Of a stretch of DNA of 64,000 nucleotides, positions 17,924-63,779 are shown one piece after another. Where the stretch lies: contig PGYV01000009.1 of NCBI GenBank assembly GCA_002839855.1, forward strand, positions 7,220 through 71,219, given 5' to 3'. The notes below the pieces were generated by a model. It did no database searches. It was not told where the DNA came from and was given only the letters and a program-made list of their open reading frames with translations. Positions within the stretch are counted from its first letter, which is position 1. Each line of letters opens with the position of its first letter. The position numbers and the translations under genes are program-made. The stretch is from Candidatus Goldiibacteriota bacterium HGW-Goldbacteria-1 (lineage in GTDB: Bacteria; Oederibacteriota; PGYV01).

Positions 17924-17950
17924 CCCGCGGGCTGAAGACCCGCGTCTACC
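17924..17950. repeat. GGTAG-hairpin repeat unit (reverse orientation): CCCGCGGGCTGAAGACCCGCGTCTACC
   Basis: It matches the units at 52236, 52338, 53254 and 63744. Confidence 0.75.
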
Positions 17951-17974
17951 ACTGCAAATTCAACTAATCAAAGC

Positions 17975-17999
17975 GAGACGCAATATATTGCGTCTCTAC
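17975..17999. repeat. 22-bp palindrome family copy 3 (GAGACGCAATATATTGCGTCTC+TAC)
   Basis: Identical to the copies at 7219-7240 and 7338-7361. It lies 3' of the gene at 18041-18418. Confidence 0.8.
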
Positions 18000-18040
18000 T
18001 ATAAAGAACGAATAATAACCGCGGACGGAGTTTATGGCAA

Positions 18041-18418
18041 TTACGGCGTATATGTTTTCTGCCTGACCACGCTTCCATTCCTATAATACTCTGACTTTAT
18101 CAGTTTGCCCTGTTTGTCATAATATTTAAATTCGCCGACGCGTTTGCCTTTTTTTATAACACCTTCGTGTTCTTTCACATTACCCTCGTAGTAAAAAACT
18201 ATCATGCCGTTGGCTGAGCCTTTTTTAACTTCCTGCGTTATCTTTATATCGCCGGATTCGTAATACCAGATAAGTTTGCCGTGCTTAAGCCCTTTGACAA
18301 TGGGTATTTCTGCCAGCAGCTTTCCTGAAGGATAAAATACCTTTTCTATTTTTTCAGGTTTGGCCGTACACGCCGCCATTAACAGCAGCGCTATAAAAAT
18401 TACCGAGATTTTTTTCAT
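18041..18418 (-). CDS. MORN-variant repeat lipoprotein (YwqK-like)
   Basis: A lipobox AACT is present. Repeated YYESG/YYEGN/YYDKQG/YYRNG motifs are present. Confidence 0.55.
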   Translation of the reverse strand: MKKISVIFIALLLMAACTAKPEKIEKVFYPSGKLLAEIPIVKGLKHGKLIWYYESGDIKITQEVKKGSANGMIVFYYEGNVKEHEGVIKKGKRVGEFKYYDKQGKLIKSEYYRNGSVVRQKTYTP

Positions 18419-18630
18419 CAGATTCGTTTCCCGTCCTTATATTTTGCCTTTGTATCAGGTTTTATTTCCTGCTGCTCTTTTTCAAGCACTTCTTTTTCTT
18501 TTTTAATAAGTTCTTCTTTAAAGTTTTTTTTATGCTTTCCTTTGTTGTGCGCGGGCTGGACTGCATTGTGCCTCTGGTCAATGCGCATTGACCTGTCAGT
18601 GTCAATAGGAGTCAGTTTTTCATCGCTCAT
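18418..18630 (-). CDS. small lysine-rich hypothetical protein
   Basis: An RBS AAGGGGG lies 8 nt upstream of the second ATG (MSDEKL...). The stop overlaps the start of the downstream gene. Confidence 0.35.
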   Translation of the reverse strand: MSDEKLTPIDTDRSMRIDQRHNAVQPAHNKGKHKKNFKEELIKKEKEVLEKEQQEIKPDTKAKYKDGKRI

Positions 18631-18653
18631 ACAACACACCCCCTTAAAACAAT

Positions 18654-19490
18654 TTATTTTTTATTAAAGTATTTATTAAGTTTCTCTTTTATAAGCGGAT
18701 AGTCGGATTTTTTTCCTGTCCATATTTTAAAAGATTCCATCCCCTGATAAATTAGCATATCCAGCCCGTTTATTATTTTCGCGCCCATCTTTTCCCCGCG
18801 CGCCAGAAACTCCGTTTTTTCGGGGTTGTAAATAATATCATAAACAACCGCGCCTTTTTTTAACTTTTCAATTTCATACACCACGTGATTGCCGTGCATG
18901 CCGACTGACGTGCAGTTAATTATAAAATCCGCGGAGGCAATAACTTTATCTTTTGCAGCGCTTTTTTTAATATCCCCTATCACGGCTTTTTTTAATCCCA
19001 GTTTCTTAACAAGATTTTTTGTCATTGGAATATCTATGTTATAAATATAAAAGTTGGAAGGTTTCTGTGTCATCAAAGCGTAGCCAATTGCATGCGCCGC
19101 GCCGCCGGCTCCCAGCATTACCGCTTTTTTGCCTTTAAGATTTATCTTTGCTTTTTTCAGAGTGGCAAGAAACCCCAGATAGTCCGTATTGTATCCCGTA
19201 AGCCTGCCATTGACGTTTTTAACGGTATTAACCGCACCTATTCGTTCTGCCGCTGCGTCAATTTCATCCAGCAGAGGCATTACAGCGTGCTTGTGCGGAA
19301 TTGTGACGTTAATACCCTTTATATTTTCTTTTCTTACGCGCTCTATCATGGCGGGTACATTTTCCGGTTCTGTTTCAAACACCCTGTATTCCCAGTTCAT
19401 TTTGTATTTTTTAAACACAGCGTTGTGCATTACAGGTGATAAGGTATGGGAAAGAGGAAACCCGATTATTCCGGTGATTGTTTTTTTCAT
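18654..19490 (-). CDS. aroE: shikimate dehydrogenase
   Basis: The N-terminal GIIGFPLSHTLSP motif is present. The NTDYLGF motif is present. The NADP-binding GAGGAAHA motif is present. Confidence 0.85.
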   Translation of the reverse strand: MKKTITGIIGFPLSHTLSPVMHNAVFKKYKMNWEYRVFETEPENVPAMIERVRKENIKGINVTIPHKHAVMPLLDEIDAAAERIGAVNTVKNVNGRLTGYNTDYLGFLATLKKAKINLKGKKAVMLGAGGAAHAIGYALMTQKPSNFYIYNIDIPMTKNLVKKLGLKKAVIGDIKKSAAKDKVIASADFIINCTSVGMHGNHVVYEIEKLKKGAVVYDIIYNPEKTEFLARGEKMGAKIINGLDMLIYQGMESFKIWTGKKSDYPLIKEKLNKYFNKK

Positions 19491-19510
19491 TATCTGCTCC
19501 TGATTATCTT

Positions 19511-20827
19511 TTATCTTCCTGCAGCTGTCATATCCCCTATTACAATTGTGGGGCTTCCATAATTAAAATAAAATACGCTGTCCTCACATACATCTTTCAC
19601 ATTCATTAACACGTCTTTTATATTGCCTGTTACAAGCATTTCCTTTACCGCCTGCTTTATTTCCCCTTTTTCCAGCAGCCACCCGTTTAAACCAAGCGAA
19701 AAATTACCGGACACAGGGTCAGCGGTATGAAGCCCCATTAAAGAGTTTATTATAAGGCCGCTGCCTTTCATTATTTTATCTTTCCTGGAATCCCCCGGCA
19801 CAATGTAGAAGTTGGACACCCCGCATTCCGGAAGCGTCTTAAAACTGCCGCGTATGCCGTTGCCGCCCGGCGTTTTTTTAAAGAAATCCGCGGATGATAT
19901 GTCATATAAAAATTCCATAAGCCTGCCGTGTTTAATAAGCATTTTATTGGCGCCGGCAGTCCCTTCGCCGTCTGTTCCAAAACTGCCCGCGCGAAAAGTC
20001 AGAAGCGCATCATCATTAATATTAAGTATGGACGAAGCAACCGTGTCGCCTTCTTTATTGGCGCCAAAAAGCGATTTGCCCTTGCGGATATTGGAAGCGT
20101 AAAATAACGGCGCAAGTATCTGCAAAAAATCCACAGCAGCCTGAGGCGGCAGTATAAGGTCGTATCTTCCTGTCTTTAACGCGCCGCCGCCTAAAAGCAT
20201 ATCCGCTTTTTGTGCGGCCTCACGGCCAAGCGCTTCAGCGTTAATATCCTTAAATACACACGAACCTGTCATAACCTCTGACGCTTCCTGAACGGCGCCG
20301 TCTGAAGATATTGCGGAAGTAAAACAGTAAAAATAAGTCTTGTCAGATGAAGAAACAGCGCCCTGCGTGTTCATGTAATGGGAGCTGCTTTTTACGTCTG
20401 TAAGATTTGTATCCCTTACAAACTTAACTTTTTTTCCGTATTTTTTTACCGCCGCTTCAGTTTCAAGCGCCTTGTCCTGCCTTATCTTTGAAGTGATACT
20501 GCTGTAATCAGGGTCAATGGTATCCGGAGGGGTGCATTTGCAGAAAGACGGCATTGTATATGTTTCATATCCTTCTATAAGGGCCGTGTCAGCGGCTTTA
20601 TGAACCGCATTCTTTGCCTCTGCCGCATCTTTAGCCGTGAAATATGAAAAACCCATTTTTCCGTTTTTAAAAACCCTTACAGCACACCCAAAAGAATCTG
20701 ACTGCCTTATCTGGTCAATTTCACCGTCGTTAACCATTGTTTCATTTTTAAGGTTTTCTTCGCAGTAAGCGTCGCCTTTTAACCCAAGCGCGTTTATTTC
20801 TGCAAGTACAGTTTTTAAGATTTCCAC
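19511..20827 (-). CDS. TldD/PmbA family metalloprotease
   Basis: The overall PmbA/TldD pattern is present, including a C-terminal GxC...HxxD-like region. The protein is 438 aa. Confidence 0.8.
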   Translation of the reverse strand: MEILKTVLAEINALGLKGDAYCEENLKNETMVNDGEIDQIRQSDSFGCAVRVFKNGKMGFSYFTAKDAAEAKNAVHKAADTALIEGYETYTMPSFCKCTPPDTIDPDYSSITSKIRQDKALETEAAVKKYGKKVKFVRDTNLTDVKSSSHYMNTQGAVSSSDKTYFYCFTSAISSDGAVQEASEVMTGSCVFKDINAEALGREAAQKADMLLGGGALKTGRYDLILPPQAAVDFLQILAPLFYASNIRKGKSLFGANKEGDTVASSILNINDDALLTFRAGSFGTDGEGTAGANKMLIKHGRLMEFLYDISSADFFKKTPGGNGIRGSFKTLPECGVSNFYIVPGDSRKDKIMKGSGLIINSLMGLHTADPVSGNFSLGLNGWLLEKGEIKQAVKEMLVTGNIKDVLMNVKDVCEDSVFYFNYGSPTIVIGDMTAAGR

Positions 20828-21564
20828 GTGCTTCTCCTTATCGCCTGCACCAGAACAGTTGCCGCCGCAATGGCCGCGGTTTCCGCCCTTAAAATGGTAT
20901 CGCCTATGCTGACCGGTATGAATTCTTTTTTTATCAGGATTTCCGCTTCTGATTCGTCAAAGCCGCCTTCGGGCCCTATTATAAAATATACCTTTTCTTC
21001 AAACCCTTCAAGTTTTACCGCTTCATCTATCAAAAAATTCTTTTCTTCTTTTTCATAAATAAAAAATTTAAGCGAATGTTCAGCAGTTTCAAGCGCGGAT
21101 ACGCTTTCAACAACCGGCAGTAATTTTGGTTTGTTCATTCTGCCGCACTGTTTTACGGCTGTATAAATTATCTTTTCCCACCTGTCATTCTTTTTTTCTT
21201 CATCCTTAATTTTTATTATAGTGCGGTTTGTTATTACGGGTATTATTTCATCCACGCCAAGTTCGGTTAATTTTTCAAGCATAAGTTCCATCTTATCTTT
21301 TTTAATAAGCGAAATTATGGCGCATATCTGCGCTGTGCTTTTCTTTCTGTCCCGTATTTTATTTAAGACTTTAATCCTTATTACCCCGTCGTGCCTGTCT
21401 ATTTCTTTTATTTCCGCTTCATATTCGCCGTGTTCATAGTTGAACACATTAACTTTCTCGCCCGGTTCCATCCGCAGCACGGTTACGGCGTGGTTGTAAT
21501 CATTTCCTGTTATTTCCGCGCTTTCTTGTGATATCTTATTTACAAAAAACCTGTGGCGTGCCAT
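20815..21564 (-). CDS. rsmE: 16S rRNA (uracil1498-N3)-methyltransferase RsmE
   Basis: The C-terminal SPOUT motif is present (GPEGGFDESE...LRAETAAIAA). The probable start is MARHRFFV, and the track ORF begins 16 codons earlier. Confidence 0.8.
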   Translation of the reverse strand: MARHRFFVNKISQESAEITGNDYNHAVTVLRMEPGEKVNVFNYEHGEYEAEIKEIDRHDGVIRIKVLNKIRDRKKSTAQICAIISLIKKDKMELMLEKLTELGVDEIIPVITNRTIIKIKDEEKKNDRWEKIIYTAVKQCGRMNKPKLLPVVESVSALETAEHSLKFFIYEKEEKNFLIDEAVKLEGFEEKVYFIIGPEGGFDESEAEILIKKEFIPVSIGDTILRAETAAIAAATVLVQAIRRSTWKS

Positions 21565-21601
21565 AAAACTCCTTATGCAGACAATCTTCCTTTTTTTCCA
21601 G

Positions 21602-22483
21602 TTACGGTTCAAATACCTTTATGCTTGCCGCGTTTTCAACATAAACAAAAGTGTTGTTTACATCTATTAAAGACGGTTTTATAACTTTACCGTTTCCTTC
21701 GCCGTAATCCGCCCACGTCTTTAATTTATTTCCGTTTGAACAGCTGTATTCCATTATCCCAGCTTCACAAGGCACATACAAAATTCCGTCTTTAACGTCT
21801 ATTCCTTTTATATCCGTACCGGGCTCTATTTTTCTTAAAAAACCGCCGCTTAGATTTAAAAACGATATCCTGTCAAGCTCTGAATCCGCGACTACTATTT
21901 CATTATTATAAAAACACATATCAGAAATTTCCATAAACTGCCCGTCAGCCGTCCCCGCGGAGCCAATAATAATATTTGTGGAATTCAGTTTGTTTAAAAT
22001 TATATCTTTATTGTACTTTTCAATATACGTCTCATAGGCTATATAAATAAAGCTGTCATCCACAATTACTTTATGGGCGTTAGCGGTAAGATTCACCGCA
22101 AAATCAGATAAAATACCCGATGTTGATATAACTGTTAAAGTATTTCCATCCGGCGCGCCCCACGCGTCAAGCACATAAATATATGAATTATTCAGATGTA
22201 CACTTTTGGGCGCTTTAAAAACATCCGGTTCTGTTTCCCATTTTTCATCGCCGTTTTTATCAAAACAATAAAGAAGCGCGGCGGTTTCATCAACAATAAA
22301 AATATCATTGCCATAAGCGTCAAAATCCGTCACTTCAGATAAATTGCCTATGCTTCCGGTATAGTGCATTCCGGCATAATTGGATGCTGCAGGGTCGGTG
22401 GGGTTAACACGTTTCATGTCCTTGCAGGATATTATAAATATAACTGCAATAACCATTACAATAATTTTTTTCATATTTACCAC
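21602..22483 (-). CDS. beta-propeller (NHL-like) lipoprotein, paralog A
   Basis: A lipobox IISCKD is present. It shares N- and C-terminal motifs with 23300-24166 (NP.DP..Y.G..Y.G ... W.DYGEG.G). Confidence 0.5.
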   Translation of the reverse strand: MVNMKKIIVMVIAVIFIISCKDMKRVNPTDPAASNYAGMHYTGSIGNLSEVTDFDAYGNDIFIVDETAALLYCFDKNGDEKWETEPDVFKAPKSVHLNNSYIYVLDAWGAPDGNTLTVISTSGILSDFAVNLTANAHKVIVDDSFIYIAYETYIEKYNKDIILNKLNSTNIIIGSAGTADGQFMEISDMCFYNNEIVVADSELDRISFLNLSGGFLRKIEPGTDIKGIDVKDGILYVPCEAGIMEYSCSNGNKLKTWADYGEGNGKVIKPSLIDVNNTFVYVENAASIKVFEP

Positions 22484-23292
22484 CTTATTTCCGCGGACGC
22501 CATAACCGCGCCGCTTTCATTTATATACACAACACCTCTGGCTTCGGGGCTGTTATAACTTAACCCCGCGTCCACAATGCCGGCGGCATAAAGCCCGCCC
22601 GCTACCAGCCCGAAAATAAGCGCGCTTGTCGCGGCTTCTTCCGCTTTTTTAAAAGCCGCTTCCTGGTTTTCATTTGTCTTTAAATACTTGTCATATTTTG
22701 TATGCTGGTCTGCCACATTGTAAATTGTAAGGGCTGTACTAAGGGCAAATGACGCGCCCACTAATACCCCTTTTAAATGCTGCCCATTATGCATCTGCCC
22801 GAACCCAGGCAGCACGGCTGAACGCCAGATAGAATCTATGGGTTCCCTTGGCTGCGTGGCTTTCTGCTTTTTTTCTATAAAAGAATTATAATATTCCATA
22901 AAATCTTTGGCATCTTTATCTTCGGGGTCAAGTTCCATCACTTTTCTGAAAAGCGGAAGCGCGTATTTATGCTGTTTCATCTGATAGTAGCAGAATCCCG
23001 TATTTTTCCACCCTTCTTTAAACGTGGGGTCTATTTTAACCGACGCGTAAAAAAACCTTGCAGCATTTTTATAATCTTTTGCCTTAAACAGAGCTTCTCC
23101 CTTTTTAAAATACAACATTGCCTTGTCGCGCACAGGGTTTTTCATTTTTTCGGATTCAGTTTGCACCTGCTGAAGAAATACAGACATGGCTTCATCTTCG
23201 CTCTGTGCTTTTTCTGTTTCTTCATAAAAAGCAGATGCCGCAGATGAAACGATTAAACAAATTATTATCATGAACAAAATACTTTTTTTCAT
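22477..23292 (-). CDS. TPR-repeat protein with conserved C-terminal WRSAV.PG.GQ domain, paralog A
   Basis: A signal peptide is present. TPR-like helices are present. The C-terminal motif is shared with 24168-24920. Confidence 0.55.
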   Translation of the reverse strand: MKKSILFMIIICLIVSSAASAFYEETEKAQSEDEAMSVFLQQVQTESEKMKNPVRDKAMLYFKKGEALFKAKDYKNAARFFYASVKIDPTFKEGWKNTGFCYYQMKQHKYALPLFRKVMELDPEDKDAKDFMEYYNSFIEKKQKATQPREPIDSIWRSAVLPGFGQMHNGQHLKGVLVGASFALSTALTIYNVADQHTKYDKYLKTNENQEAAFKKAEEAATSALIFGLVAGGLYAAGIVDAGLSYNSPEARGVVYINESGAVMASAEIRW

Positions 23293-23299
23293 CTTATTT

Positions 23300-24166
23300 T
23301 TACTCCCCGAATTTCTTTATAGTTGAACCGTCCTGGATATATATTAACCCGTCAGCGGCATTATAGGCAATACTTTTTCCGTTTAAAACCCTGCCCGGCC
23401 CTTCGCCAAAATCCCCCCACTTAAGCAAAACTTCAAGCGCGCCGTCTGTTTTGTAAACCGCGCTTTCCGACAATATTTGCAGCGCGCCTTCCTGAATACA
23501 TGCATCTATAATATTGGCGGTAAAATCAATTACCTGCGGATTGCTTAAATTCTGGTCGTATTTAATTACCTGTTTTTTATTAAGTTTGTTTACCACATAT
23601 ACGGAAGTGTTGAACTTAAAAATCTCCCCCGGAGTAAAGTAACCCTGCGCGGTCACGCTTACAGGTACAGTTAACTGCGCGCCGCCGGTGTCAGAAATAC
23701 GGTATATTTCATTGTCATATTCGTTGGAAATGTATAAATTGCCGTTCATCCATTCTATATATAAGCTGTCAATTCCCGAAGAAGCGGTAAAGGCAAGCGG
23801 GGTTATCGTATTAAACATATCATTCTGAATTTTCTGCACGTTTTCGGACCTGTCAACGCCATAAATATTTCCGCTGTCATCCGCGCATATATCAGAAATT
23901 CCGCTAAACAAACCAAGCGGCGTACCTGATGCCGTTTTTACAACGCAGCCGCCGTAATTTTCTTTTGTCACAGCGTAAGCAATATAGCCGCCGGCGTAAG
24001 CAATTGATTCTATCTGAAAATCTGCAGGATAAAGTTCTTCCCCTTTATAGGTAATTCCCCTGTAGTCTGCCGAAGACGGATCACACGGATTTTTCCGTGA
24101 AAGTTCGCTGCATCCGGAAAAAACAGCTGTTAAAATCAGTATGAAAAGAAGGTTAAATTTACGCAT
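23300..24166 (-). CDS. beta-propeller (NHL-like) lipoprotein, paralog B
   Basis: A lipobox FSGCSE is present. It is paralogous to 21602-22483. Confidence 0.5.
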   Translation of the reverse strand: MRKFNLLFILILTAVFSGCSELSRKNPCDPSSADYRGITYKGEELYPADFQIESIAYAGGYIAYAVTKENYGGCVVKTASGTPLGLFSGISDICADDSGNIYGVDRSENVQKIQNDMFNTITPLAFTASSGIDSLYIEWMNGNLYISNEYDNEIYRISDTGGAQLTVPVSVTAQGYFTPGEIFKFNTSVYVVNKLNKKQVIKYDQNLSNPQVIDFTANIIDACIQEGALQILSESAVYKTDGALEVLLKWGDFGEGPGRVLNGKSIAYNAADGLIYIQDGSTIKKFGE

Positions 24167-24167
24167 A

Positions 24168-45652: not shown

Positions 45653-45784
45653 TATGCTCCGTTTAAAAAATAGCGCTTTAACGAATTAAGCATTTAAGCT
45701 ATAGCGAGAACACTGCTGCTTTTCATATTTTTCTTTGCTTATCTTAATTGCTTAACTGCTTATATGTTTAATACGCTATTTTTT

Positions 45785-52081: not shown

Positions 52082-52235
52082 TAAATAGATAAAGCCCATA
52101 CATAAGCCCATAGATAATAAGCCATATCCCATAAATAATGATTAAATGCCTATTTTGGGATTATTTAATAGATAAATAATGCCTTTTCATCTAACTACAC
52201 GGCATGTATTGCGCCTTATTCTTATGTTCAGCCTT

Positions 52236-52264
52236 GGTAGACGCGGGTCTTCAGCCCGCGGTAG
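52236..52264. repeat. GGTAG-hairpin repeat unit (A-type, forward): GGTAGACGCGGGTCTTCAGCCCGCGGTAG
   Basis: 6-bp stem CGCGGG/CCCGCG with a 7-nt loop. It is a member of the dispersed family. Confidence 0.75.
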
Positions 52265-52285
52265 TTTGTTTTGGATTTAAGTACT

Positions 52286-52316
52286 GGTAGGCGCGCCTTT
52301 TAAGGCGCGGCAGTTG
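52286..52316. repeat. GGTAG-hairpin repeat unit (B-type, forward): GGTAGGCGCGCCTTTTAAGGCGCGGCAGTTG
   Basis: It has the same flanks as the A-type, with a different self-complementary stem. Confidence 0.75.
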
Positions 52317-52337
52317 CTTTAAAAATTATTAAAAAAA

Positions 52338-52408
52338 CGCGCGGGCTAAAGACCCGCGTCTACCAAACCACTCTCACGAGCTGCTTCTTTTACCCGATTT
52401 TGCTTATC
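52338..52408. repeat. reverse-orientation hairpin unit plus conserved ~45-bp tail (TACCAAACCACTCTC...GCTGCTTCTTTTACCCGATTTTGCTTATC); copy 1 of the direct repeat flanking higBA
   Basis: About 85% identical to 53254-53331. Confidence 0.75.
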
Positions 52409-52453: not shown

Positions 52454-52753
52454 TTATATCAATTTTAGAACAAGGCGTTTATTAACGCCATGGGCTATTT
52501 TTGAGAGCGTGGCAACTTCCGCGTTTTCCCCATTGTCAAAAACCCGCGATACCACCTGTGGTTTTAAACCCGCCTTTTTTGCCAGAGCGTATTTGGTCAT
52601 ATGTTTTTTATCAAGTTCTTTTTCAACGCTTGATAAAAAATCACACAAAGCCAATTCATCTTTAAATTCGCTCTGCGAAACATTAATATTATCAAAAAAA
52701 TTCTTAACATTTTCTTTCTTTGCGGTTGTAACCTGTTTTTTTGTAAGTTTCAT
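52454..52753 (-). CDS. higA: HigA-like antitoxin (XRE-family HTH)
   Basis: The C-terminal HTH is MTKYALAKKAGLKPQVVSRVFDNGENAEVATLSKIA. It lies immediately downstream of the toxin gene, which is the HigBA order. Confidence 0.7.
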   Translation of the reverse strand: MKLTKKQVTTAKKENVKNFFDNINVSQSEFKDELALCDFLSSVEKELDKKHMTKYALAKKAGLKPQVVSRVFDNGENAEVATLSKIAHGVNKRLVLKLI

Positions 52754-52754
52754 A

Positions 52755-53093
52755 TCATTTTCTCCCTTCTCTTGCTATTCTTATTTTTTCTGCCGTTTCA
52801 TACTCTCTTTGGTTTGTCTTTTTGTTTCCGCGTTCATAAAAAGTATGTATTATCTGCGCAGACTTGCCTTTCCAATAAAACAACATCCTGAATTCAATAT
52901 TGTGAAAATGCGGCCTTAATTCAAATAAGCCCTTGTATCCTTCCACCTTGTCCATATATTGCGAAGGAAGATTAAAACCGCGCAATTCAAGCAGCTCAAT
53001 ATATACTTTAATCTTCTTTTTAAGCCCTTCTTCTTTTATTTCCTGTACCGCTTCTAAAACCGCTTCGGTCATGTCATAAGAAAACAGATTCAT
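52755..53093 (-). CDS. higB: HigB/Gp49-family (RelE/ParE superfamily) toxin
   Basis: Gp49-like motifs are present (YIELLELRGFNLPSQY...GLFELRPHF). An RBS AAGGAG lies 7 nt upstream of the ATG at 53093. The track ORF starts at an upstream TTG. Confidence 0.7.
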   Translation of the reverse strand: MNLFSYDMTEAVLEAVQEIKEEGLKKKIKVYIELLELRGFNLPSQYMDKVEGYKGLFELRPHFHNIEFRMLFYWKGKSAQIIHTFYERGNKKTNQREYETAEKIRIAREGRK

Positions 53094-53110
53094 GTTAACT
53101 CCTTTCAAAG

Positions 53111-53130
53111 TATACAATTTAAATTGTATA
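53111..53130. promoter_or_regulatory. perfect 20-bp palindrome TATACAATTTAAATTGTATA just upstream of the higB RBS (HigA operator candidate)
   Basis: 9-bp arms separated by 2 bp, in the classic TA autoregulatory position. Confidence 0.65.
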
Positions 53131-53202
53131 GTGTCAAGTTATTATGATTTAAAGCGTGATTTTTTACCAAACCCTCCCACAGGGCATTGCATAAATCTAA
53201 AA

Positions 53203-53230
53203 CCACGCGCCCTAAAAGGACGCGGCTACC
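53203..53230. repeat. GGTAG-hairpin repeat unit (B-like, reverse; stem with one G.T position)
   Basis: CCACGCGCCCTAAAAGGACGCGGCTACC. Confidence 0.6.
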
Positions 53231-53253
53231 AAATCTTACATTTAAATTCACTT

Positions 53254-53331
53254 CCGTGGGCTGAAGACCCGCGTGTACCAAACCACTCTCTTTAACTGCC
53301 GAGCTGATTCTTTTACCCGCTTCTGCTTATC
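53254..53331. repeat. reverse-orientation hairpin unit plus conserved tail; copy 2 of the direct repeat flanking higBA
   Basis: CCGTGGGCTGAAGACCCGCGTGTACCAAACCACTCTC...GAGCTGATTCTTTTACCCGCTTCTGCTTATC. Confidence 0.75.
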
Positions 53332-53421
53332 TGCTTATTGCTTAACCCTCTATTCTTTTCATTCCCCGGCACCGACATCAGAACTCCATTATCTTTATAT
53401 AACAACATCATAAATAATTAA

Positions 53422-54408
53422 TTAAAATAAAAATTTAATGCTATTATTCTCTCTGTTCTTCATCATTTTCCTTCCTATATCCATCCATACAGATGTATCC
53501 TCTTTATTAAAAAATACAAAATCATTTATAATAGAAGTTATTAATTTGTTTAACCATGAAACAAGCTGTTTTTTTCTTAAACGAAACATTCTTCCAGTTC
53601 TTAAAAAATCATAATTCTTTTTATATTCCTGGTATACATTCCAACTAAGCCATTTATTATTATCACTTGAACCAACCGGAAATTTTCCAAGCTTCGATTT
53701 GATTATTATCATACCCAGCCTCTTACTTTCTTCGTCAAACTCAATTTTTAATATTCTCGATTGATTGTTGGTAAAATATATCTCAAAATTAAAGTATTTT
53801 TTTTGCTTATATAAGTAACTGTAAGAATTATTTTTTAAAAACACATTCATTTCTTTTAAACAGATACTGACAAATTCATTAAAACCAACAAAAGGATTTT
53901 TCTTGTTGTTAATTTGCAGGCGTATCATCAAACGCTTAGATATATTGACACCATCAAAAGAACCTTCTTCAATAGCATTCTTCAATATTTTTCTATTTTC
54001 AATAAATTTAATTATATTTGTATTTGTATTTTTTATACATTCTTTAATTAAAATAAAATTATTATTATCGTATTTTAAAATTAACTCATTAATTAATTCC
54101 CTGTATTCGAAATATTTACCAACATCCTCCCCTATTTGAAACCAAATATCAAATTTTTTAACGCCGATAGCAGTTCTCTTAATGTCTTTTAAACAATTAA
54201 TTCCTATCTTTATACTTGCAGAACCATCTTTTTTTGATACATTTAGAAAAAAAACAATCACACCAGAGGGTAAATATTTAATAAACTTATTTCGATTTTG
54301 CTTATAACCCAATTTTTCAAAAATTAAGTATAATTTTTTAATAAACAGATTATTATCCATAGTGTTTTTTATTCTCCCGTTCAGATACAAAATATCTCCC
54401 TTAAACAA
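53422..54408 (-). CDS. hypothetical protein in a sharply AT-rich segment (candidate horizontally acquired defence/Abi-like gene)
   Basis: A 328-aa ORF with Lys/Asn/Ile-rich composition. The GC content is far below the flanking regions. No recognisable domain was found by eye. Confidence 0.5.
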   Translation of the reverse strand: MFKGDILYLNGRIKNTMDNNLFIKKLYLIFEKLGYKQNRNKFIKYLPSGVIVFFLNVSKKDGSASIKIGINCLKDIKRTAIGVKKFDIWFQIGEDVGKYFEYRELINELILKYDNNNFILIKECIKNTNTNIIKFIENRKILKNAIEEGSFDGVNISKRLMIRLQINNKKNPFVGFNEFVSICLKEMNVFLKNNSYSYLYKQKKYFNFEIYFTNNQSRILKIEFDEESKRLGMIIIKSKLGKFPVGSSDNNKWLSWNVYQEYKKNYDFLRTGRMFRLRKKQLVSWLNKLITSIINDFVFFNKEDTSVWMDIGRKMMKNRENNSIKFLF

Positions 54409-56619: not shown

Positions 56620-56652
56620 CCTGCCTCCGCTTATTATTAAAACTGCCTGTTT

Positions 56653-57249
56653 CTATTTGTACAGCTGATTTTTATTGATGTATTCCCACACCGCAGCGCC
56701 CACTTCTTCGCGGATATTATTGCCGTACTTTATGCGCGTCCTTAATTCTGACGCTGACAGGTCAATTAAGTGCGGGTTTGCCCAAAACATATCCGCGGCT
56801 TCGGGGTGTTTTTTTATGACTTTTTCCCTGGAAAAATCCGTGCGTTCAAATATTATGAATTTTATAAGCTTAAGAAGTTCTTTATAATCTTTCCATGTTT
56901 CAATAAAATAAAACGCGTCTGACCCTGTGATAAAATAAAATTCCTTGCCCGGAAATTCCGTCATAAAATATTTTATGGTATTGATTGAATAAGATATCCC
57001 CTGCTTTTTAATTTCATATTCCGACAGGATAAAATCCGGGTCGCCGGATATTAAAAGCTGCGTCATTTTTTCCCTGTGCCCGGAATCTATTATTCCCGCG
57101 TGGTCCTTGTGCGGCGGAAGGTATGAAGGCACAAAAAATATTTTGTCCAGCCCGAATTGTTTTTTTACATCCTTTGCCAGCAGGTAATGCCCGACGTGAG
57201 GGGGGTTAAACGTACCGCCGAAAATCCCCACCTTTTTTGCTTTATCCAC
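56653..57249 (-). CDS. nadD: nicotinate-nucleotide adenylyltransferase
   Basis: The GIFGGTFNPPHVGH (HxGH) motif is present. The protein is 198 aa. Confidence 0.85.
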   Translation of the reverse strand: MDKAKKVGIFGGTFNPPHVGHYLLAKDVKKQFGLDKIFFVPSYLPPHKDHAGIIDSGHREKMTQLLISGDPDFILSEYEIKKQGISYSINTIKYFMTEFPGKEFYFITGSDAFYFIETWKDYKELLKLIKFIIFERTDFSREKVIKKHPEAADMFWANPHLIDLSASELRTRIKYGNNIREEVGAAVWEYINKNQLYK

Positions 57250-58498
57250 GTATCTGCCCGCTGCCCGTAATTATGTATTTTTCAGACGTAAGCCCCAAAA
57301 GCGCCAAAGGCCCCCTGACGTGCAGTTTCTGGTTGGAAATGCCCATTTCCGCGCCAAGGCCAAATTCGTTGCCGTCCGTGAACCTTGTGGAAGCGTTTAC
57401 ATAAACCGCGGCTGAATCCACTTCATTTAAAAAACGTGATGAAGCTGTTTTATCCTGCGTTATTATCGCGTCGGAATGGTGAGAGCTGTATGTGTTGATG
57501 TGCTCTATTGCTTCATCAAGGTTGTCCACTATTTTAATAGAAAGTATTAAATCATTATATTCGGTTATCCAGTCCTGCTCTGTGGCTTCTTTTATATTTT
57601 TAAGTATGGTTCTTGTCCTGTCATCGCCTCGAAGTTCTACTTTTACCTTTGCATATTCCGCAGCCATTACAGGCAGAAACTTATCCGCTATCTTTGAATT
57701 AACAAGCAATGTTTCCATTGCGTTGCATGTGCTTGGCCTTTGCACCTTGGCGTTAAAACAAACCTTTACCGCCATGTCCATGTCAGTTGATGAGTCCACA
57801 TACGTATGGCATATGCCCGCGTCGTGCCTTATAACGGGGATAAGGGAGTTTTCTTCTATAAATTTAATAAGCCCGTAACCGCCGCGGGGGATTATGACAT
57901 CCACGTACTCTTTCATCTTTACAAGGTGGGCGGCAGCTTCCCTGCTTGTGGATTCTATGACTTCAACAGCGCCTTCAGGAAGGCCGGCATTTTTAATACC
58001 TTCTTTAATTATTCCGGTAAGGCAGATGTTTGAATTAATAGCGTCAGAACCGCCTTTTAGAATAACCGCGTTTCCGGATTTTAAAGTTAAAGACGCCGCT
58101 TCCACGCAGACATTGGGGCGGGATTCAAAAATAATCCCTATTACGCCAAGGGGCATTCTTATTTTTTGTATCTTTAAACCGTTGGGCCTTATTTCAGTGT
58201 GCGTTATTTCGCCGACAGGGTCTGGTAATTGTATTACGTCTTTTAATGCCTTTATCATTTCATCTATTCTTTTATCGTTTAAAGCAAGCCTGTCAAGAAA
58301 CGCTTCTGACAGCCCTTTTGTTTTGCCGTTGGCCAAATCAATATTATTCTGCTCTTTAATAGCAGCGCGATTTTTATCCAGCCCTTCAGCGATAAGTGAA
58401 AGCGCGCGGTTTTTGTCAGCTGTGCTGAATTTTACAAGTTCTCTGGAAGCTTTTTTGACGCTTTTACATTTTAAAAGCACCGCTTCTTTTTCATCCAC
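57242..58498 (-). CDS. proA: glutamate-5-semialdehyde dehydrogenase (gamma-glutamyl phosphate reductase)
   Basis: The aldehyde dehydrogenase fold is present, with the catalytic Cys in a ...STRFTDGNEFGLGAE... context. The start was moved to GTG at 58498. The track ORF's extra 34 N-terminal codons run through a structured intergenic element. Confidence 0.85.
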   Translation of the reverse strand: MDEKEAVLLKCKSVKKASRELVKFSTADKNRALSLIAEGLDKNRAAIKEQNNIDLANGKTKGLSEAFLDRLALNDKRIDEMIKALKDVIQLPDPVGEITHTEIRPNGLKIQKIRMPLGVIGIIFESRPNVCVEAASLTLKSGNAVILKGGSDAINSNICLTGIIKEGIKNAGLPEGAVEVIESTSREAAAHLVKMKEYVDVIIPRGGYGLIKFIEENSLIPVIRHDAGICHTYVDSSTDMDMAVKVCFNAKVQRPSTCNAMETLLVNSKIADKFLPVMAAEYAKVKVELRGDDRTRTILKNIKEATEQDWITEYNDLILSIKIVDNLDEAIEHINTYSSHHSDAIITQDKTASSRFLNEVDSAAVYVNASTRFTDGNEFGLGAEMGISNQKLHVRGPLALLGLTSEKYIITGSGQIRG

Positions 58499-58549
58499 TG
58501 TTAAACCCCTTTTTTTTATCAAACCACTATTTGTTCTGTACTTGCTCTC

Positions 58550-58657
58550 GTAGGGACAGCGCTCCCGCGCTGTCCGGTTCTTGTTCTTTTGTAAATTCAA
58601 CTACGCGGACAGCGTGAATGCCATGGCAACGCCCGCATTCAAGCAGCTGTCCCTACA
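58550..58657. repeat. GC-rich structured element between hemW and proA (nested inverted repeats built on GGACAGCG)
   Basis: Perfect 9-bp hairpin GGACAGCGC-TCCC-GCGCTGTCC. The outer pairing is GTAGGGACAGC ... GCTGTCCCTAC. A third copy CGGACAGCG is present. Confidence 0.6.
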
Positions 58658-58672
58658 AAATCTAATGTTTAC

Positions 58673-59806
58673 TTAAAAAAATAAAGCAATTACCGTGTTA
58701 GAAACCATCATGCCTTTTCTTGTAAGCGCTATAACTTCCGGGTTATCTGTCAAAAGCCCGCCTTTAAGGGGCCTTTCAATGATTTTACCAAACCGCCCGT
58801 CAAAATCATAACCAAATCTTTCCTTAAAATCCGTTTTATTTATCCCCGCCACTGTCCTTAATTTAAGCATTATAAATTCTTTAAGTTCCATGTCAGGCGT
58901 TATTTTTTCGCTTGTCTCTGCGGGGTCTTCATTCTTTTTTAACCGCTTTATGTACTCTTCTATGTTTTTTACATTTACATACCTTAACCCGTCAAAATAA
59001 GAAGCTGCGGCAGTGCCGATGCCTATATATTTTCCGGAATCCCAGTAATTCAGATTATGAAGACACTCTTTGCCGTCTTTGCAGAAATTGGCAATTTCAT
59101 ACTGCCTGTAATCATTACCTTCCAGAAAACCCGCGCCTGTTATGAACATATCGGTTATGTCATCGTCAGACGGCAGTTTTAACGCGCCGCTTTCAATCAA
59201 TTTTCCTGTGGGCGTTTCGGGATACGGCGTGAACATATAAAAAGAAATATGCTCCGCGCCTATGGATGACGCCTCTTCAATATCGGATATAACCATTGAT
59301 ACATTCTGCCCGGGAATACCGTACATAAGATCAAGGTTGATATTAGTGATATTATTTTCCCGCAGTAAGGTAAAAGCTTCTTTTATCTTTTCTGCGTTAT
59401 GCACGCGGCCAAGAGTTTTCAGGATATTATCATCAAAACTCTGCGCGCCCATGCTTACCCTGTTTACGTTTGCCGCAAGCACCTTCGCGGTTTTGTCGGT
59501 TATTGTTTCCGGGTTTGCCTCTATGGTTATTTCCTTAAAGTTCTTTTTTGGATAAAGTGAATATATTCCCGTGAAAAGAGAGTCCAGCTGTTTTTCAGTA
59601 AGGACAGTGGGTGTCCCGCCGCCGATGAAAAGGGTTGAAAATTCAATTTCATATTTGTTCTTATAATATTTTAACTCTTTTATCGCCGCTTCTATATAAT
59701 CGTCAATATAATAAAATTTATCGTCACAGGAATAAAAGTCGCAGTAGCCGCATTTTTGAACGCAGAAAGGAATGTGAATATACAGCCCGGTATTATTGTT
59801 TATCAT
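58673..59806 (-). CDS. hemW: radical SAM heme chaperone HemW (HemN-like, oxygen-independent coproporphyrinogen oxidase family)
   Basis: The CxxxCxxC motif is present as IPFCVQKCGYCDF. The protein is 377 aa. Confidence 0.85.
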   Translation of the reverse strand: MINNNTGLYIHIPFCVQKCGYCDFYSCDDKFYYIDDYIEAAIKELKYYKNKYEIEFSTLFIGGGTPTVLTEKQLDSLFTGIYSLYPKKNFKEITIEANPETITDKTAKVLAANVNRVSMGAQSFDDNILKTLGRVHNAEKIKEAFTLLRENNITNINLDLMYGIPGQNVSMVISDIEEASSIGAEHISFYMFTPYPETPTGKLIESGALKLPSDDDITDMFITGAGFLEGNDYRQYEIANFCKDGKECLHNLNYWDSGKYIGIGTAAASYFDGLRYVNVKNIEEYIKRLKKNEDPAETSEKITPDMELKEFIMLKLRTVAGINKTDFKERFGYDFDGRFGKIIERPLKGGLLTDNPEVIALTRKGMMVSNTVIALFF

Positions 59807-59838
59807 AGTATCCCGCTTTCAGGCTTTTACGCGGCTGA

Positions 59839-60588
59839 TTATTTTACCGCAGCTGCCGGCGCCGCGGCTTCATCCGCTTTTACCGGTTTATCAAGTTTAA
59901 GGTGTTTAATCGCCTTCCACCTTGTGGGCGGCCAGTAAACTATCCACGCCTTGCCCCTGATATTTTTACGGGGTAAAAAGCCCCAGAACCTGCTGTCAGA
60001 TGAATTGTCCCTGTTATCACCCATCATAAAATAACTGTCCGGCGGGACTGTCACAGGCCCAAAGTTATCGCGCGGGGCTATAGAGCCGGGGAAAATTCTC
60101 ATATCCTTATGAAAAGTAAAACTTTCATCCAGTTTTTTTCCGTTTATAAAAAGAACTTTATCTTTCATCTCTATTTTATCCCCCGGCAGCCCCATGCACC
60201 TTTTGATAAACATAAAACGCGGGTCTTCGGGATACCTGAAAATAAGCACATCGCCCCTTTTAGGGTCGGCAAAACGCAGCACAGTATCTTCCTTCCACGG
60301 CAGGTACGTGCCGTAAACAAATTTATTGGCAATGATATGGTCGCCTATTAATAAATTGTCTTCCATGGAAGAGGACGGGATACGAAAAGCCTGGATAAAA
60401 AGCGTGCGGATGATAATGGCTATTATAATGGCTTCAAATGCGGGTTCCACCCAGTCGCGCACCACGTTTTCTTTTGAAAGTTTAAAAACAAAAACTACAA
60501 GTATTTCCCCTATTGTAAGCAGTACAAAAAGCGCCCAAAATATGAATTCTGTGGTTTCTATACCAAAAATTGTAGCACCGGGTGGCAT
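59839..60588 (-). CDS. lepB: signal peptidase I
   Basis: The catalytic Ser is in box B of the S26 peptidase family (PSSSMEDNLLIGDHII). A catalytic Lys region is present. An N-terminal TM is present. Confidence 0.85.
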   Translation of the reverse strand: MPPGATIFGIETTEFIFWALFVLLTIGEILVVFVFKLSKENVVRDWVEPAFEAIIIAIIIRTLFIQAFRIPSSSMEDNLLIGDHIIANKFVYGTYLPWKEDTVLRFADPKRGDVLIFRYPEDPRFMFIKRCMGLPGDKIEMKDKVLFINGKKLDESFTFHKDMRIFPGSIAPRDNFGPVTVPPDSYFMMGDNRDNSSDSRFWGFLPRKNIRGKAWIVYWPPTRWKAIKHLKLDKPVKADEAAAPAAAVK

Positions 60589-60664
60589 GTTTTTTCCTCC
60601 ATTAAATTAAAAGATGGTTTAAATTATATGCCAAAAGAGGAAAAAAGCAAGAACTTTAAGGGCG

Positions 60665-60968
60665 GAAGCTGGGCGGCTTGGCAGCTGGGAAGCTGGGAAG
60701 TAACAACACGAGGGACAGATGCACGGAGGGACGAAAGGAATGGCTGTAAAGGCGCGGCTGGGCGGCTAAGCAGCTGGGCAAAGGCGAAAGGCCGGAAGAT
60801 CGGTTTGGATCTGGTAGGCGCACCTTTTAAGGTGCGGCAGTTGATTTAGGTTTAGGTGTAGATGTTTACCAAAATGAAATGAAAAAAACCAACTGCCCCG
60901 GGCTAAAGCCCGCGCCTACCAATACCAAACCATGTTACCCAGTTACCCAGCTGCCTAGCTGCCTAGCC
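60665..60968. mobile_element. MITE-like composite repeat (imperfect ~35-bp terminal inverted repeats made of CAGCTG-containing units, enclosing two GGTAG-hairpin units)
   Basis: The left inverted repeat is GAAGCTGGGCGGCTTGGCAGCTGGGAAGCTGGGAAGTAAC. The right inverted repeat is GTTACCCAGTTACCCAGCTGCCTAGCTGCCTAGCC. The internal units are at 60814-60848 (B-type) and 60888-60920 (reverse). No ORF with a credible start is present. Confidence 0.5.
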
Positions 60969-60978
60969 TCCGTTCCCC

Positions 60979-61007
60979 TTGACACCCTATTTTAAAAGTG
61001 TTATAAA
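60979..61007 (+). promoter_or_regulatory. sigma70-type promoter for the inositol-lipid operon
   Basis: TTGACA-17nt-TATAAA lies 37 bp upstream of the ATG at 61044. An RBS GGAGGG follows. Confidence 0.65.
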
Positions 61008-61043
61008 TCATATGTTTTATATAATTGGAGGGAAATTGTAAAA

Positions 61044-61643
61044 ATGGGATACAAAACAGCCAGAGACGGCCTGAAAAAGTTCTTTGAAAACGCAATGGTG
61101 CCTTTACTTGTACTTTTAAATAAATTGCATATTACACCCAATTTTGTAACATGGGTTGGGCTTATTATTAATTTAGCAGGCGCTTTTCTTATATATAAGG
61201 GGCAATTTGTTGCAGGCGCAATTGTTATCATATTCGCAAGCATTTTTGACATGATAGACGGCTCCCTTGCCAGATATACAAACCAGAAATCAAAATTCGG
61301 CGGGTTTCTTGATTCCGTAACCGACAGGATATCAGAAGGCGCCCTTTACCTGGCTATTCTGATTTATTACCTGAACCTTGAGATACCAAATAAAACCGCG
61401 GTTGTTTTATGTTATGTGGTTATGTTTTCATCATTTCTTGTCAGCTATTTAAGGGCGCGCGCGGGCGGACTTAAAATAGACTGTTCCGGCGGAATCTTTA
61501 CCCGCCCGGAGCGGATGGTGGTTATTTTACTTGGGCTTTTAATTAATCAGGCAGTCCCGGCGCTTTGGATTATGGCAGTATTATCCATAGTAACGGTTAT
61601 TCAGCGGTTTTTGCTTGTCAACGAACAGGCAAAACATATTTAA
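61044..61643 (+). CDS. CDP-alcohol phosphatidyltransferase (phosphatidylinositol-phosphate synthase-like)
   Basis: The D(x2)DG(x2)AR...G(x3)D(x3)D motif is present as DMIDGSLARYTNQKSKFGGFLDSVTD. About 6 TM helices are present. Confidence 0.8.
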   Translation: MGYKTARDGLKKFFENAMVPLLVLLNKLHITPNFVTWVGLIINLAGAFLIYKGQFVAGAIVIIFASIFDMIDGSLARYTNQKSKFGGFLDSVTDRISEGALYLAILIYYLNLEIPNKTAVVLCYVVMFSSFLVSYLRARAGGLKIDCSGGIFTRPERMVVILLGLLINQAVPALWIMAVLSIVTVIQRFLLVNEQAKHI

Positions 61644-61670
61644 ATTCATAGAAATTTCAGGAGGAGAAAG

Positions 61671-62801
61671 ATGGCAAAGATTAGAATGGCAATTGCAGGT
61701 TTAGGCAACTGCGCCTGGTCCCTGATGCAGGGGCTGGAGTTTTACAAGGACGTACAGGACAGCACGTTTATCCCCGGACTTATGAACGCCAACCTTGGGG
61801 GATACAGGGTGCGCGACATTGAACTTGTCGCGGCTTTTGACGTGGACAGCAATAAGGTTGGAAAAGACGTAAAGGACGCGCTGGAAGCCCTGCCTAACAA
61901 CACGATTGAATTCGCTAAAATGAAAAAGACCGGCGTGAAATGCATGAGGGGCCCGACACTGGACGGCCTTGGCAAGTATTACAGGGAAGTTGTAACAGAG
62001 TCAGACGAGATTCCGGTTGACGTGGCAAAAGTATTAAAGGAAAAGAAAGTGGACGTGTTTGTAAGCTACATGCCTGTAGGGTCAGAAGAAGCGGTTCAGT
62101 ATTACGCTTCGTGCGCCCTTGAAGCAAAATGCGCTTTTGTAAATGCCATCCCGGTCTTTATCGCGTCAAAGCCGGAATGGGCGGCAAAGTTTAAAAAAGC
62201 GGGGCTTCCTATTATCGGGGATGACATCAAATCGCAGGTAGGCGCCACGATAGTGCACAGGGTTTTAACCCAGCTTTTTGGAGACAGGGGCGTAAAAATA
62301 CTGCGCACCTATCAGATTAACTTTGGCGGTAACATGGACTTTAAAAACATGCTGGAACGCGAACGCCTGTATTCAAAAAAGATTTCCAAAACCAACGCGG
62401 TTCTGTCCGCGATGCAGAATGACATTGACAGCAAAGAAGACGTTCACGTAGGGCCGTCTGACCACATCCCATGGCTTAAAGACCGCAAATGGTGCCACAT
62501 AAGGATGGAAGGCGAAAACTTTGGAGGTGTCCCTTTAAACCTTGAATTAAAGCTGGAAGTATGGGATTCACCCAACAGCGCCGGCGTTATTATTGACGCG
62601 GTACGCTGCGCCAAGATAGCCCTTGATAAAAAAATAGGCGGAATACTGGAAGGGCCTTCGGCTTACTTTATGAAGACGCCCCCTATCCAGTACGATGACA
62701 ACCTTGCCAAGACAATGGTTCAGAAATTTGTGGACAGCAAACAAACACCTGTTAAAAAATCCGCTAAAAAAGCGGTAAAAAAATCTTCAAAGAAGAAATA
62801 A
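61671..62801 (+). CDS. myo-inositol-1-phosphate synthase (short bacterial/archaeal type)
   Basis: The N-terminal Rossmann region is [22 protein letters not shown]. Conserved central motifs are present. The length matches short-type MIPS. An RBS AGGAGG is present. Confidence 0.85.
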
Positions 62802-63650
62802 ATGTACCGCCTGCTTAAATTTACAGGCATGCTGTTAAAAAATATCCCGCGTACAGCGGGATATTTTTTTTTCAGCGCCATCTCTCTTATTTTATTTGCA
62901 CTGGACGGCAATAAAAAGAAAATACTTCAAGACAATTTAAAACATGTCCTTAGCAAATTACCTGACAACAGGACGCTTAAAAAAAATTATTACAATTATG
63001 CAAGGTACTATTTTGACCTTTTTAAAAATACGTCTGAACTTTCAAAAAGTTTTAACCGCGAATCTTTTAAACCCATGGCAGATACCGTAAAAAGATACCT
63101 TGATAGCGGCAAAAGCATGATAATTACCACAATGCACTACGGCAACTGGGATTTAGGCGGCGCGATTTTAGCATCGTACTTTCCGGGTAAAGTAACAGCA
63201 GTGGTGGAAGAATTATCAGACGGAGCTTTTAAATGGTTTACCGAAACAAGAAGCAGCTGGGGTATGAATGTTATAAAATCCACGGATTTAAAAGCCATGT
63301 TAAAAGTCTTAAAATCAGGAAACCTTCTTGTACTTGTCTCTGACAGGGATTTGGAAAAAACAGGTTTTAATCCTTTATTTTTTGGCAAAAAAGCGTACAT
63401 CCCTTCCGGGCCCGCGAAACTGTCGCTTTTATCGGGGGCTCCGGTGCTTTTTGCTGTTTTTAAAAGAAATGAAACTGACCTATTTAAATATGAACTTTCC
63501 TGGGATAACACTCTTATAAACAGTGAAAATCTTCCCCGCACCCCGGAAAACGAGGAAAAAATTACTAAAGAACTTGTATCAAAATTTGAAACTGTATTGA
63601 AACAGGATGCGTCACAGTGGTGCATGCTGCAGAAGGTTTGGCTGGAATAG
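62802..63650 (+). CDS. LpxL/HtrB (LABLAT)-family lipid acyltransferase (PatA-like)
   Basis: An N-terminal TM is present. The catalytic-region motif HYGNWDLGG is present (the H-x4-D family signature context). Confidence 0.7.
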   Translation: MYRLLKFTGMLLKNIPRTAGYFFFSAISLILFALDGNKKKILQDNLKHVLSKLPDNRTLKKNYYNYARYYFDLFKNTSELSKSFNRESFKPMADTVKRYLDSGKSMIITTMHYGNWDLGGAILASYFPGKVTAVVEELSDGAFKWFTETRSSWGMNVIKSTDLKAMLKVLKSGNLLVLVSDRDLEKTGFNPLFFGKKAYIPSGPAKLSLLSGAPVLFAVFKRNETDLFKYELSWDNTLINSENLPRTPENEEKITKELVSKFETVLKQDASQWCMLQKVWLE

Positions 63651-63743
63651 TTTTGGACGCTTGGATGGTTAGAGGCTTAGAGGCTTGGCTGGAGCGAGCC
63701 TGCGAAGTTAAAATCCCCGGGCTTACGCGGATTATTTGGCTTT

Positions 63744-63779
63744 GGTAGACGCGGGTCTTTAGCCCGCGGCAGTTGATTT
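63744..63779. repeat. GGTAG-hairpin repeat unit (A-type, forward): GGTAGACGCGGGTCTTTAGCCCGCGGCAGTTGATTT
   Basis: Same unit as 52236. It is preceded by AGGCTT-type tandem units resembling the left arm of the 60665 element. Confidence 0.7.

Follow-up and report, generated by a model that had tools for sequence, protein, structure and literature searches.

Repetitive extragenic palindromic (REP) sequences of the GTAG type, alone or assembled into bacterial interspersed mosaic elements (BIMEs), are known from Proteobacteria, for example as the y, z1 and z2 units of E. coli, as GTAGGGTGGGCTTYAGCCCACC in H. influenzae and as GGTAGCGCCGGGCCATGCCCGGCG in S. maltophilia. They have an unpaired GTAG head, by definition GT(A/G)G, in front of a short GC palindrome of 20-50 nt that can fold into a stem-loop, are extragenic, reach high copy numbers in a genome, occur in dimers and clusters, form subfamilies with complementary stem changes in which G.T pairs are tolerated, and bracket the gene (rayT) of a REP-associated tyrosine transposase (RAYT or TnpA-REP), an arrangement called a REPtron. 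REP doublets forming hairpins (REPINs) and their RAYTs are reportedly treated by Bertels and Rainey in 2011 and by Bertels and colleagues in 2017; in the system of Pseudomonas fluorescens SBW25 the replicative unit is the inverted doublet, and the RAYT is housekeeping-like and flanked by its own repeat type. Insertion sequences of the IS200/IS605 family (IS608, ISDra2) likewise rely on a Y1 HUH transposase of the Y1_Tnp fold family that acts on hairpins of single-stranded DNA (ssDNA), which in these elements are subterminal. The characters of GTAG-type REPs recur in a family of hairpin repeats in 64,000 nucleotides (hereafter the window) of contig PGYV01000009.1 of Candidatus Goldiibacteriota bacterium HGW-Goldbacteria-1. 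The nine copies in this window are very probably GTAG-type REPs, in part organised in BIME- or REPIN-like clusters, and would represent a family of a small uncultured Goldiibacteriota-like clade with a putative cognate RAYT. Their features match published REP definitions (Nunvar 2010, PMC2817692; Di Nocera 2013, PMC3733652; Corneloup 2021, PMC8266576). The family is previously uncatalogued and is not a new kind of element. It differs from the proteobacterial REPs in its Goldiibacteriota-like host and in that singletons and head-to-tail tandems exceed inverted dimers.

How is the repeat built, and how many copies does the window hold? The unit of 32 nucleotides consists of (G)GTAG, one variable nucleotide, a GC stem of 6-7 bp, a T-rich loop of 4-7 nucleotides, the opposite strand of the stem and often GCAGTTG, and thus has both the unpaired GTAG head and the short palindrome of a GTAG-type REP. 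A covariance model, R1, was built from an alignment (A3) of 36 distinct variants from the window and its relatives. Run with filters off over the 64 kb, R1 returned exactly nine sites (36-50 bits, E 7e-9 to 9e-6). As the tenth-best match reached 13.7 bits (E 0.6), the list of nine is complete, and all the copies that an earlier note on this DNA had listed were recovered within a few nucleotides of where it had placed them. A degenerate pattern of head and stem gave eight matches (seven sites) in the window, compared with none in 100 dinucleotide shuffles. Eight of the nine copies are packed into 11.6 kb. Both flanks had been described as conserved; this is true of the head, which reads GGTAG in eight of the nine copies and GGTAC in one (at 53279), with GGTA invariant across the 36 variants, but not of the tail, since GCAGTTG is found in only four copies and GTAGTTTG in a fifth, the rest ending in GGTTTAG, CGTTTTT, TGGTTTT and GAAGTGA.

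Three stem types can be distinguished, with the consensus GGTAG-A-CGCGGG-TCTTYAG-CCCGCG-G for type A, GGTAG-G-CGC(G/A)CC-(C/T)TTTA(A)-GG(C/T)GCG-G for type B and GGTAG-C-CGC(G/A)(T/C)CC-…-GG(G/A)(C/T)GCG-T for type C. The loop CTTYAG, down to its C/T dimorphism, resembles that of a Haemophilus REP (Nunvar 2010, PMC2817692). To type A belong the copies at 17919-17950 (minus strand, GGTAG-A-CGCGGG-TCTTCAG-CCCGCG-GGTTTAG, 42.4 bits), 52236-52267 (plus strand, the copy with the tail GTAGTTTG, 47.1 bits), 52333-52364 (minus strand, tail CGTTTTT, 41.6 bits) and 63744-63775 (plus strand, 50.4 bits, z -3.6), the last with a full GCAGTTG tail and a T-run. Type B is represented at 52286-52316 (plus strand, GGTAG-G-CGCGCC-TTTTAA-GGCGCG-GCAGTTG, 47.1 bits, dG -11.7, z -3.2) and, with the stem CGCACC/GGTGCG, at 60813-60843 (plus strand, 45.7 bits, z -4.8), and type C at 53199-53230 (minus strand, GGTAG-C-CGCGTCC-TTTTA-GGGCGCG-TGGTTTT, 40.8 bits). 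The copy at 60890-60920 (minus strand, GGTAG-G-CGCGGG-CTTTAG-CCCGGG-GCAGTTG, 44.2 bits) is degenerate. The type-A copy at 53248-53279 (minus strand, 36.1 bits) looks like a decaying one because of its GGTAC head, a single C.A mismatch in the stem on the GTAG strand and a fold no better than that of shuffles (z +0.25); the G.T position that the earlier note had seen in one copy is located here, but on the strand opposite GTAG.

Covariation was tested on alignment A3 with a helix of seven pairs, using column shuffles and a slid 3' partner as controls. Standard pairs occupy 96.8% of the cells, as compared to 78.8% in the shuffles and 22-52% with the 3' partner slid. In four of the seven pairs both sides change (G-C/A-T at 10-22, C-G/G-C at 11-21 and 12-20), and the covariation score was attained by none of 500 shuffles. 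The stem covariation is real, in keeping with the earlier observation that the stems vary and stay complementary. Folded as ssDNA, five of six single copies are more stable than their shuffles, with -7 to -12 kcal/mol and z -2.5 to -4.8.

All nine copies are intergenic; they lie between open reading frames (ORFs) with Pfam support, in five of the larger gaps of the window, and their organisation in dimers and clusters with linkers is BIME-like. Copies had been proposed to cluster in pairs of opposite orientation, which holds for two of the four adjacent pairs, both with GTAG outside (52286+/52364-, 60813+/60920-), the other two being head-to-tail tandems (52236+/52286+, 53279-/53230-). In the cluster at 52234-52366, composed of three REPs in the order A+, B+, A-, the copy at 52236 forms the outer left arm and that at 52333-52364 its inverted partner; with 27-nt arms that are 96% complementary the outer A copies are able to pair into one long hairpin, and the cluster folds with -45.8 kcal/mol (z -8.2). 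The copies at 60813-60843 and 60890-60920 are the left and right arms of an inverted, REPIN- or BIME-like doublet at 60802-60931, which includes the GGTTTGGATCT leaders and has 46-nt arms of 72% complementarity around a 38-nt spacer. As ssDNA this doublet folds with -30.9 kcal/mol (z -6.0).

Is the family found outside the window? A scan for head, stem and tail in one genome per GTDB species gave 76 loci. About half of them are a single conserved coding sequence of Rhodobacteraceae (GGTAGACGCGGGTYTCRTCCTGCGGCAGTTGCTTCCAGAT), unrelated to the repeat family and therefore discarded; nearly all others come from one metagenome-assembled genome (MAG), bacterium USDV_metabat.159 (JAKQNO01), and a few isolated chance matches remain. 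This MAG has about 55 strict pattern matches genome-wide, and in 282 kb of its loci R1 detects 83 copies. The earlier note had suggested a genome-wide count of structurally conserved copies, and for this relative the pattern scan and R1 together give at least 80. Window and MAG align only in the repeats and a few genes, the latter at about 67-72% DNA identity, and the RecA of the window is 80% identical to the RecA of a Candidatus Goldiibacteriota MAG. Since the window and USDV_metabat.159 differ as species, the family is common to distinct species of one uncultured clade. A scan of viral contigs for the repeat gave no matches.

In USDV_metabat.159, 44 of 77 copies are singletons, and the pairs are 11 tandem, 7 head-to-head and 2 tail-to-tail, which leaves about 18 of the 77 copies in inverted pairs. 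As in REPIN-RAYT systems, related species share the family, the RAYT gene resembles a housekeeping gene and has its own type of repeat at its flanks, two repeat types go with two RAYT lineages, and some doublets fold into long hairpins. In contrast to these systems, in which the inverted doublet replicates, singletons and the 11 tandems of the MAG exceed its nine inverted pairs, and doublets do not predominate as a rule despite the two that fold well in the window.

REP loci identical to those of USDV_metabat.159 are contained in contigs that were submitted as Firmicutes bacterium ADurb.Bin300 and Spirochaetes bacterium UR.bin61 (among the collected loci, L015 is part of L073 and L051 part of L053), and Candidatus Aerophobetes ADurb.Bin490 is a further name under which the RAYT has been deposited. 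The clade may thus be affected by mis-binning or an inconsistent taxonomy.

Which protein could act on such repeats? At locus L072 of USDV_metabat.159 a gene at 4286-4747 on the minus strand encodes a 154-aa protein with the HUH motif PDHMHMI (DHMHM), followed by YYDHIIRSEQELCKHIKYVFENLVRKGLV (YYDH..R..YxxxNPVRKGLV). The protein matches Pfam Y1_Tnp (1.2e-8) and passes the NCBIfam model NF047646, 'REP-associated tyrosine transposase' (95.1 bits, cut-off 80), but fails the IS200 equivalog NF033573 (26.9 bits, cut-off 55). Its sole relative by sequence in the PDB is 4ER8, the group-2 TnpA-REP of E. coli, to which the similarity is remote (E 9e-8). The loop that resembles the Haemophilus REP, whose RAYT belongs to group 4, may give a lead to the group of the RAYTs described here. 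The gene is placed between inverted type-A REPs at 4214-4244(+) and 4781-4811(-). Type-A flanks are found at eight type-A RAYT loci (L072, L081, L082 and L085-L089), the homologues from other samples being 95-100% identical. A second RAYT lineage, 63-64% identical to the first, is represented by P0002 (annotated Candidatus Goldbacteria) and P0003, and its loci L083, L084 and L094 have type-B and type-C repeats as flanks; L094 also has an array with a 95-bp period at 1999-2350. The stem type therefore goes with the RAYT lineage, head and tail being common to both lineages. Homologues at a greater distance (35-50% identical) carry the JGI annotation 'REP element-mobilizing transposase RayT'. The loci L085-L087 are strain variants with one, three or five head-to-tail REPs of 47-bp period upstream of the rayT start, and rayT of the variant P0122 runs at its 3' end into an inverted REP that supplies its last codons, so that the C-terminus changes from DIKD to NNKTAAG (…TAAG and stop). 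Both the tandem-number variants and P0122 are signs of recent REP turnover. The likeness to IS200/IS605 elements ends with the transposase family and the hairpin substrate, as here tens of hairpins are dispersed far from one transposase, left and right ends show no asymmetry and tnpB is missing, and none of the nine window copies has a transposase next to it.

How might the nine copies have come about? By analogy with the systems of E. coli, Stenotrophomonas and Marinomonas, the GTAG strand, once single-stranded, would fold into a GC hairpin of 6-7 bp, and a single-copy domesticated Y1/HUH transposase, the RAYT, would read the unpaired GTAG head together with the hairpin, cut and rejoin nearby. 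Such action would seed copies in intergenic DNA, duplicate them in tandem or delete them, and copies would persist and multiply as singles, tandems and inverted pairs. Selection would preserve hairpin formation, which may be the reason why the stems of types A, B and C differ yet remain complementary. A cognate RAYT in the window's own genome would act on the nine copies; this link, and likewise the presumed abundance of the repeat in the source genome, is extrapolated from the sequences of relatives. Some sense-oriented copies may in addition have been co-opted as RNA hairpins at 3' ends, either as terminators or as mRNA stabilisers, a role that would not be needed to explain the family. The characterised TnpA-REP systems that serve as the analogy are reportedly those of Messing in 2012 and Ton-Hoang in 2012. 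Cleavage and strand transfer on REPs have been assayed in vitro (Corneloup 2021, PMC8266576).

With such an assignment the REP/RAYT partnership, best studied in gamma-proteobacteria, would extend to an uncultured Goldiibacteriota-like lineage. The clean RAYT/REP pair, with types A and B separated by compensated stem changes only, could inform on how TnpA-REP recognises REPs that are perfect palindromes. In practical terms, the repeats break metagenome assemblies of the clade and yield spurious calls of small ORFs, and the model R1 helps in binning, annotation and strain typing.

Several observations weigh against the assignment to REPs with a cognate RAYT. The REPtron bracket of a RAYT and its REPs is seen in relatives; in the 64-kb window tblastn found no RAYT homologue, and when metagenomes were scanned with the RAYT alignment 25 loci came up, none of them from the source sample Ga0246094. 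In the source genome, which lies outside the scanned collections, nine copies are seen, all within 64 kb. Contigs of the same strain or of a 97%-identical strain revealed no insertion polymorphism, as the REPs are in place in both: the 97%-identical strain (L078) retains the two copies at 60.8 kb, and identical contigs from other samples retain the rest. The double changes in the stem divide separately amplified subfamilies A, B and C, and the covariation thus reflects a few subfamily founding events rather than many independent substitutions in many copies. Tandem pairs and singletons dominate, whereas most of the GTAG families described have few head-to-tail dimers (Di Nocera 2013, PMC3733652). 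Finally, three copies pass a scan for terminators, whereby a role at the RNA level and one at the DNA level become inseparable.

Could the hairpins then act mainly in RNA, as intrinsic terminators or as 3' stem-loops that stabilise mRNA, and resemble REPs only incidentally? Their position would be consistent with this proposal, since seven of the nine copies lie 90-220 nt past a stop codon and six of the nine are sense-oriented. Behind each stop the nearest copy is found at 90-143 nt, downstream of genes for a MORN-repeat protein, a helix-turn-helix (HTH) antitoxin, a 328-aa protein (53422-54408) and a lipid A acyltransferase; the two plus-strand copies of the 52.2-kb cluster are farther from the stop codon. 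For instance, 17919-17950(-) is in sense orientation 91 nt 3' of the MORN-repeat stop codon, and 63744-63775(+) lies 94 nt 3' of that of the acyltransferase gene and is followed by GCAGTTGATTTTTTT. The GTAG strand tolerates G.T pairs, and the three copies that pass the scan for a hairpin with a T-run (53224-, 52242+, 52358-) share with Rho-independent terminators a GC hairpin 3' of genes with T-rich sequence behind it. However, both orientations are represented, with antisense copies at 52236+ and 52286+, where a G.T pair becomes C.A in the RNA, and one doublet is located between the divergent genes for a signal peptidase and a CDP-alcohol phosphatidyltransferase (60589-61043). An adjacent U-tract is missing from most copies, six of the nine failing the scan. 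Termination requires neither an invariant unpaired GTAG head nor a conserved tail, and terminators do not account for arrays and doublets, for sequence conserved across sites and species, or for rayT genes of relatives that are bracketed by the same repeats. A main function in RNA is therefore improbable, whereas a secondary, co-opted role of some copies as terminators is plausible.

A second alternative, that the copies represent the terminal inverted repeats, or else fragments, of a miniature inverted-repeat transposable element moved by a conventional DDE transposase, is suggested by the inverted doublets at 60802-60931 and 52234-52366 with their arms of 27-46 nt, and by contigs of other assemblies that end at these repeats. 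It is highly improbable nonetheless. In the MAG most copies are singletons or tandems, each arm is by itself a self-complementary hairpin headed by GTAG, none of the copies was seen to have a DDE transposase beside it, the only bracketed transposase being the Y1 RAYT, and a target-site duplication is not evident at the 60.8-kb doublet.

The earlier note had left the choice between REP/BIME elements and structured RNA motifs, and it was the former that stood up, through the GTAG head, the extragenic position, the clusters and the RAYT brackets in relatives; a small structured non-coding RNA family or cis-regulatory RNA motif, for which stem covariation and conserved flanks might speak, is the least probable reading of all, given a paired core of about 19 nt, copies on both strands in tandem arrays and inverted doublets, the association with RAYT genes and the lack of any Rfam match at E<=1. 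The comparison with Rfam, which had also been proposed, covered the whole window at the gathering threshold and at E<=1 and assigned the repeats to no family; only the tRNA at 7044-7117 reached the gathering score, with a few chance-level matches elsewhere. CRISPR arrays and integron attC sites were rejected on inspection, as the sites are unevenly spaced, have housekeeping genes between them and are mixed in orientation; cas or intI genes are absent among the Pfam-checked neighbours. In the literature, searching for the repeat sequence yielded unrelated primers only.

The GTAG-type REPs of this clade also differ from those of Proteobacteria in what surrounds the hairpin. The unit is extended by a conserved 5' leader, GGTTTRGATYT, and by the conserved 3' tail GCAGTTG, and it is frequently accompanied by a linker of about 45 nt and by micro-arrays of period 8. 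In the window the linker module (GGAGCGAGCCTGCGAAG..AAATCCCCGGGCTTACGCGGATT) is located at 63691-63735(+), directly upstream of the REP at 63744. This linker (GRAGCGAGCNTGYGNAG…AAATCC…) is present in the window, in 14 copies in the loci of the MAG and at 2290-2335 of L083. It (GGAGCGAGCCTGCGAAG…AAATCCCCGGGCTTRCGCGGATT) joins REPs, either taking the place of the GCAGTTG tail or preceding the head, a position reminiscent of the linker motifs in BIMEs. A significant fold of the linker module was looked for, and none was found.

Tandem arrays of period 8 are seen at 60664-60700, 60754-60779, 60934-60967, 53322-53344 and 63669-63686, and also at 45743-45762, with a unit that varies by site (GGAAGCTG, GCGGCTGG, GTTACCCA, AGCTGCCT, TCTGCTTA, TTAGAGGC). 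In the window and the loci of relatives, runs of period 8 occur at 15 of 224 REP flanks as opposed to 2 of 560 random segments; other periods from 5 to 12 are not enriched at these flanks.

There is a small though real chance that the 32-nt REP is just the core of a modular system specific to the lineage, in which leader and tail are fixed and which further includes the 45-nt linker, site-specific period-8 arrays and two RAYT lineages amid stem types set apart by compensated changes at positions 4-6 of the stem. If this were true, and if the period-8 arrays were by-products of the RAYT or the stem switch set its specificity, the clade would offer a natural experiment on substrate choice by TnpA-REP, in a candidate phylum in which no TnpA-REP has been studied.

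A second GTAG-headed family, GTAG-AGACGCAATATATTGCGTCT, consists of a perfect 20-nt palindrome with an AT centre, of which the window has three exact copies with 0 expected, at 7216-7240(+), 7338-7361(-) and 17976-17999(-). The first two form a pair with GTAG outside, about 97 nt apart, just 3' of the tRNA at 7044-7117. The third lies 25 nt upstream of the REP at 17950 on the same strand, an arrangement also present at the MAG loci L014 and L030.

Among the neighbouring genes, a toxin-antitoxin pair at 52454-53117(-) lies upstream of rpsU and yqeY, exactly in the interval that separates the two REP clusters of highest density (52236-52364 and 53199-53279). The pair is made up of a Gp49/HigB-like protein (112-120 aa) and a 99-aa HTH_3 antitoxin. 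The module was considered as a RAYT or a REP-bounded cassette and rejected, neither protein being a Y1 transposase. As the layout of the region is identical in contigs of other samples, it provides no presence/absence evidence.

The public annotation contains a 73-aa ORF at 60628-60849(+) that crosses the period-8 arrays and ends within the 60813 REP; Pfam gives no match to it, and the low-complexity repeats and the REP probably led to a spurious gene call here. In the same gap, at about 60.5-61.0 kb, the GC skew changes sign and gene orientation switches from minus to plus. A replication origin at 60.6-61.0 kb was considered and rejected, since a DnaA-box cluster is absent and the skew follows the gene strand elsewhere in the window. 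The plus-strand gene block at 27.3-32.5 kb likewise has a weaker skew, and the switch at 60.5-61.0 kb is probably an effect of gene strand and not an origin.

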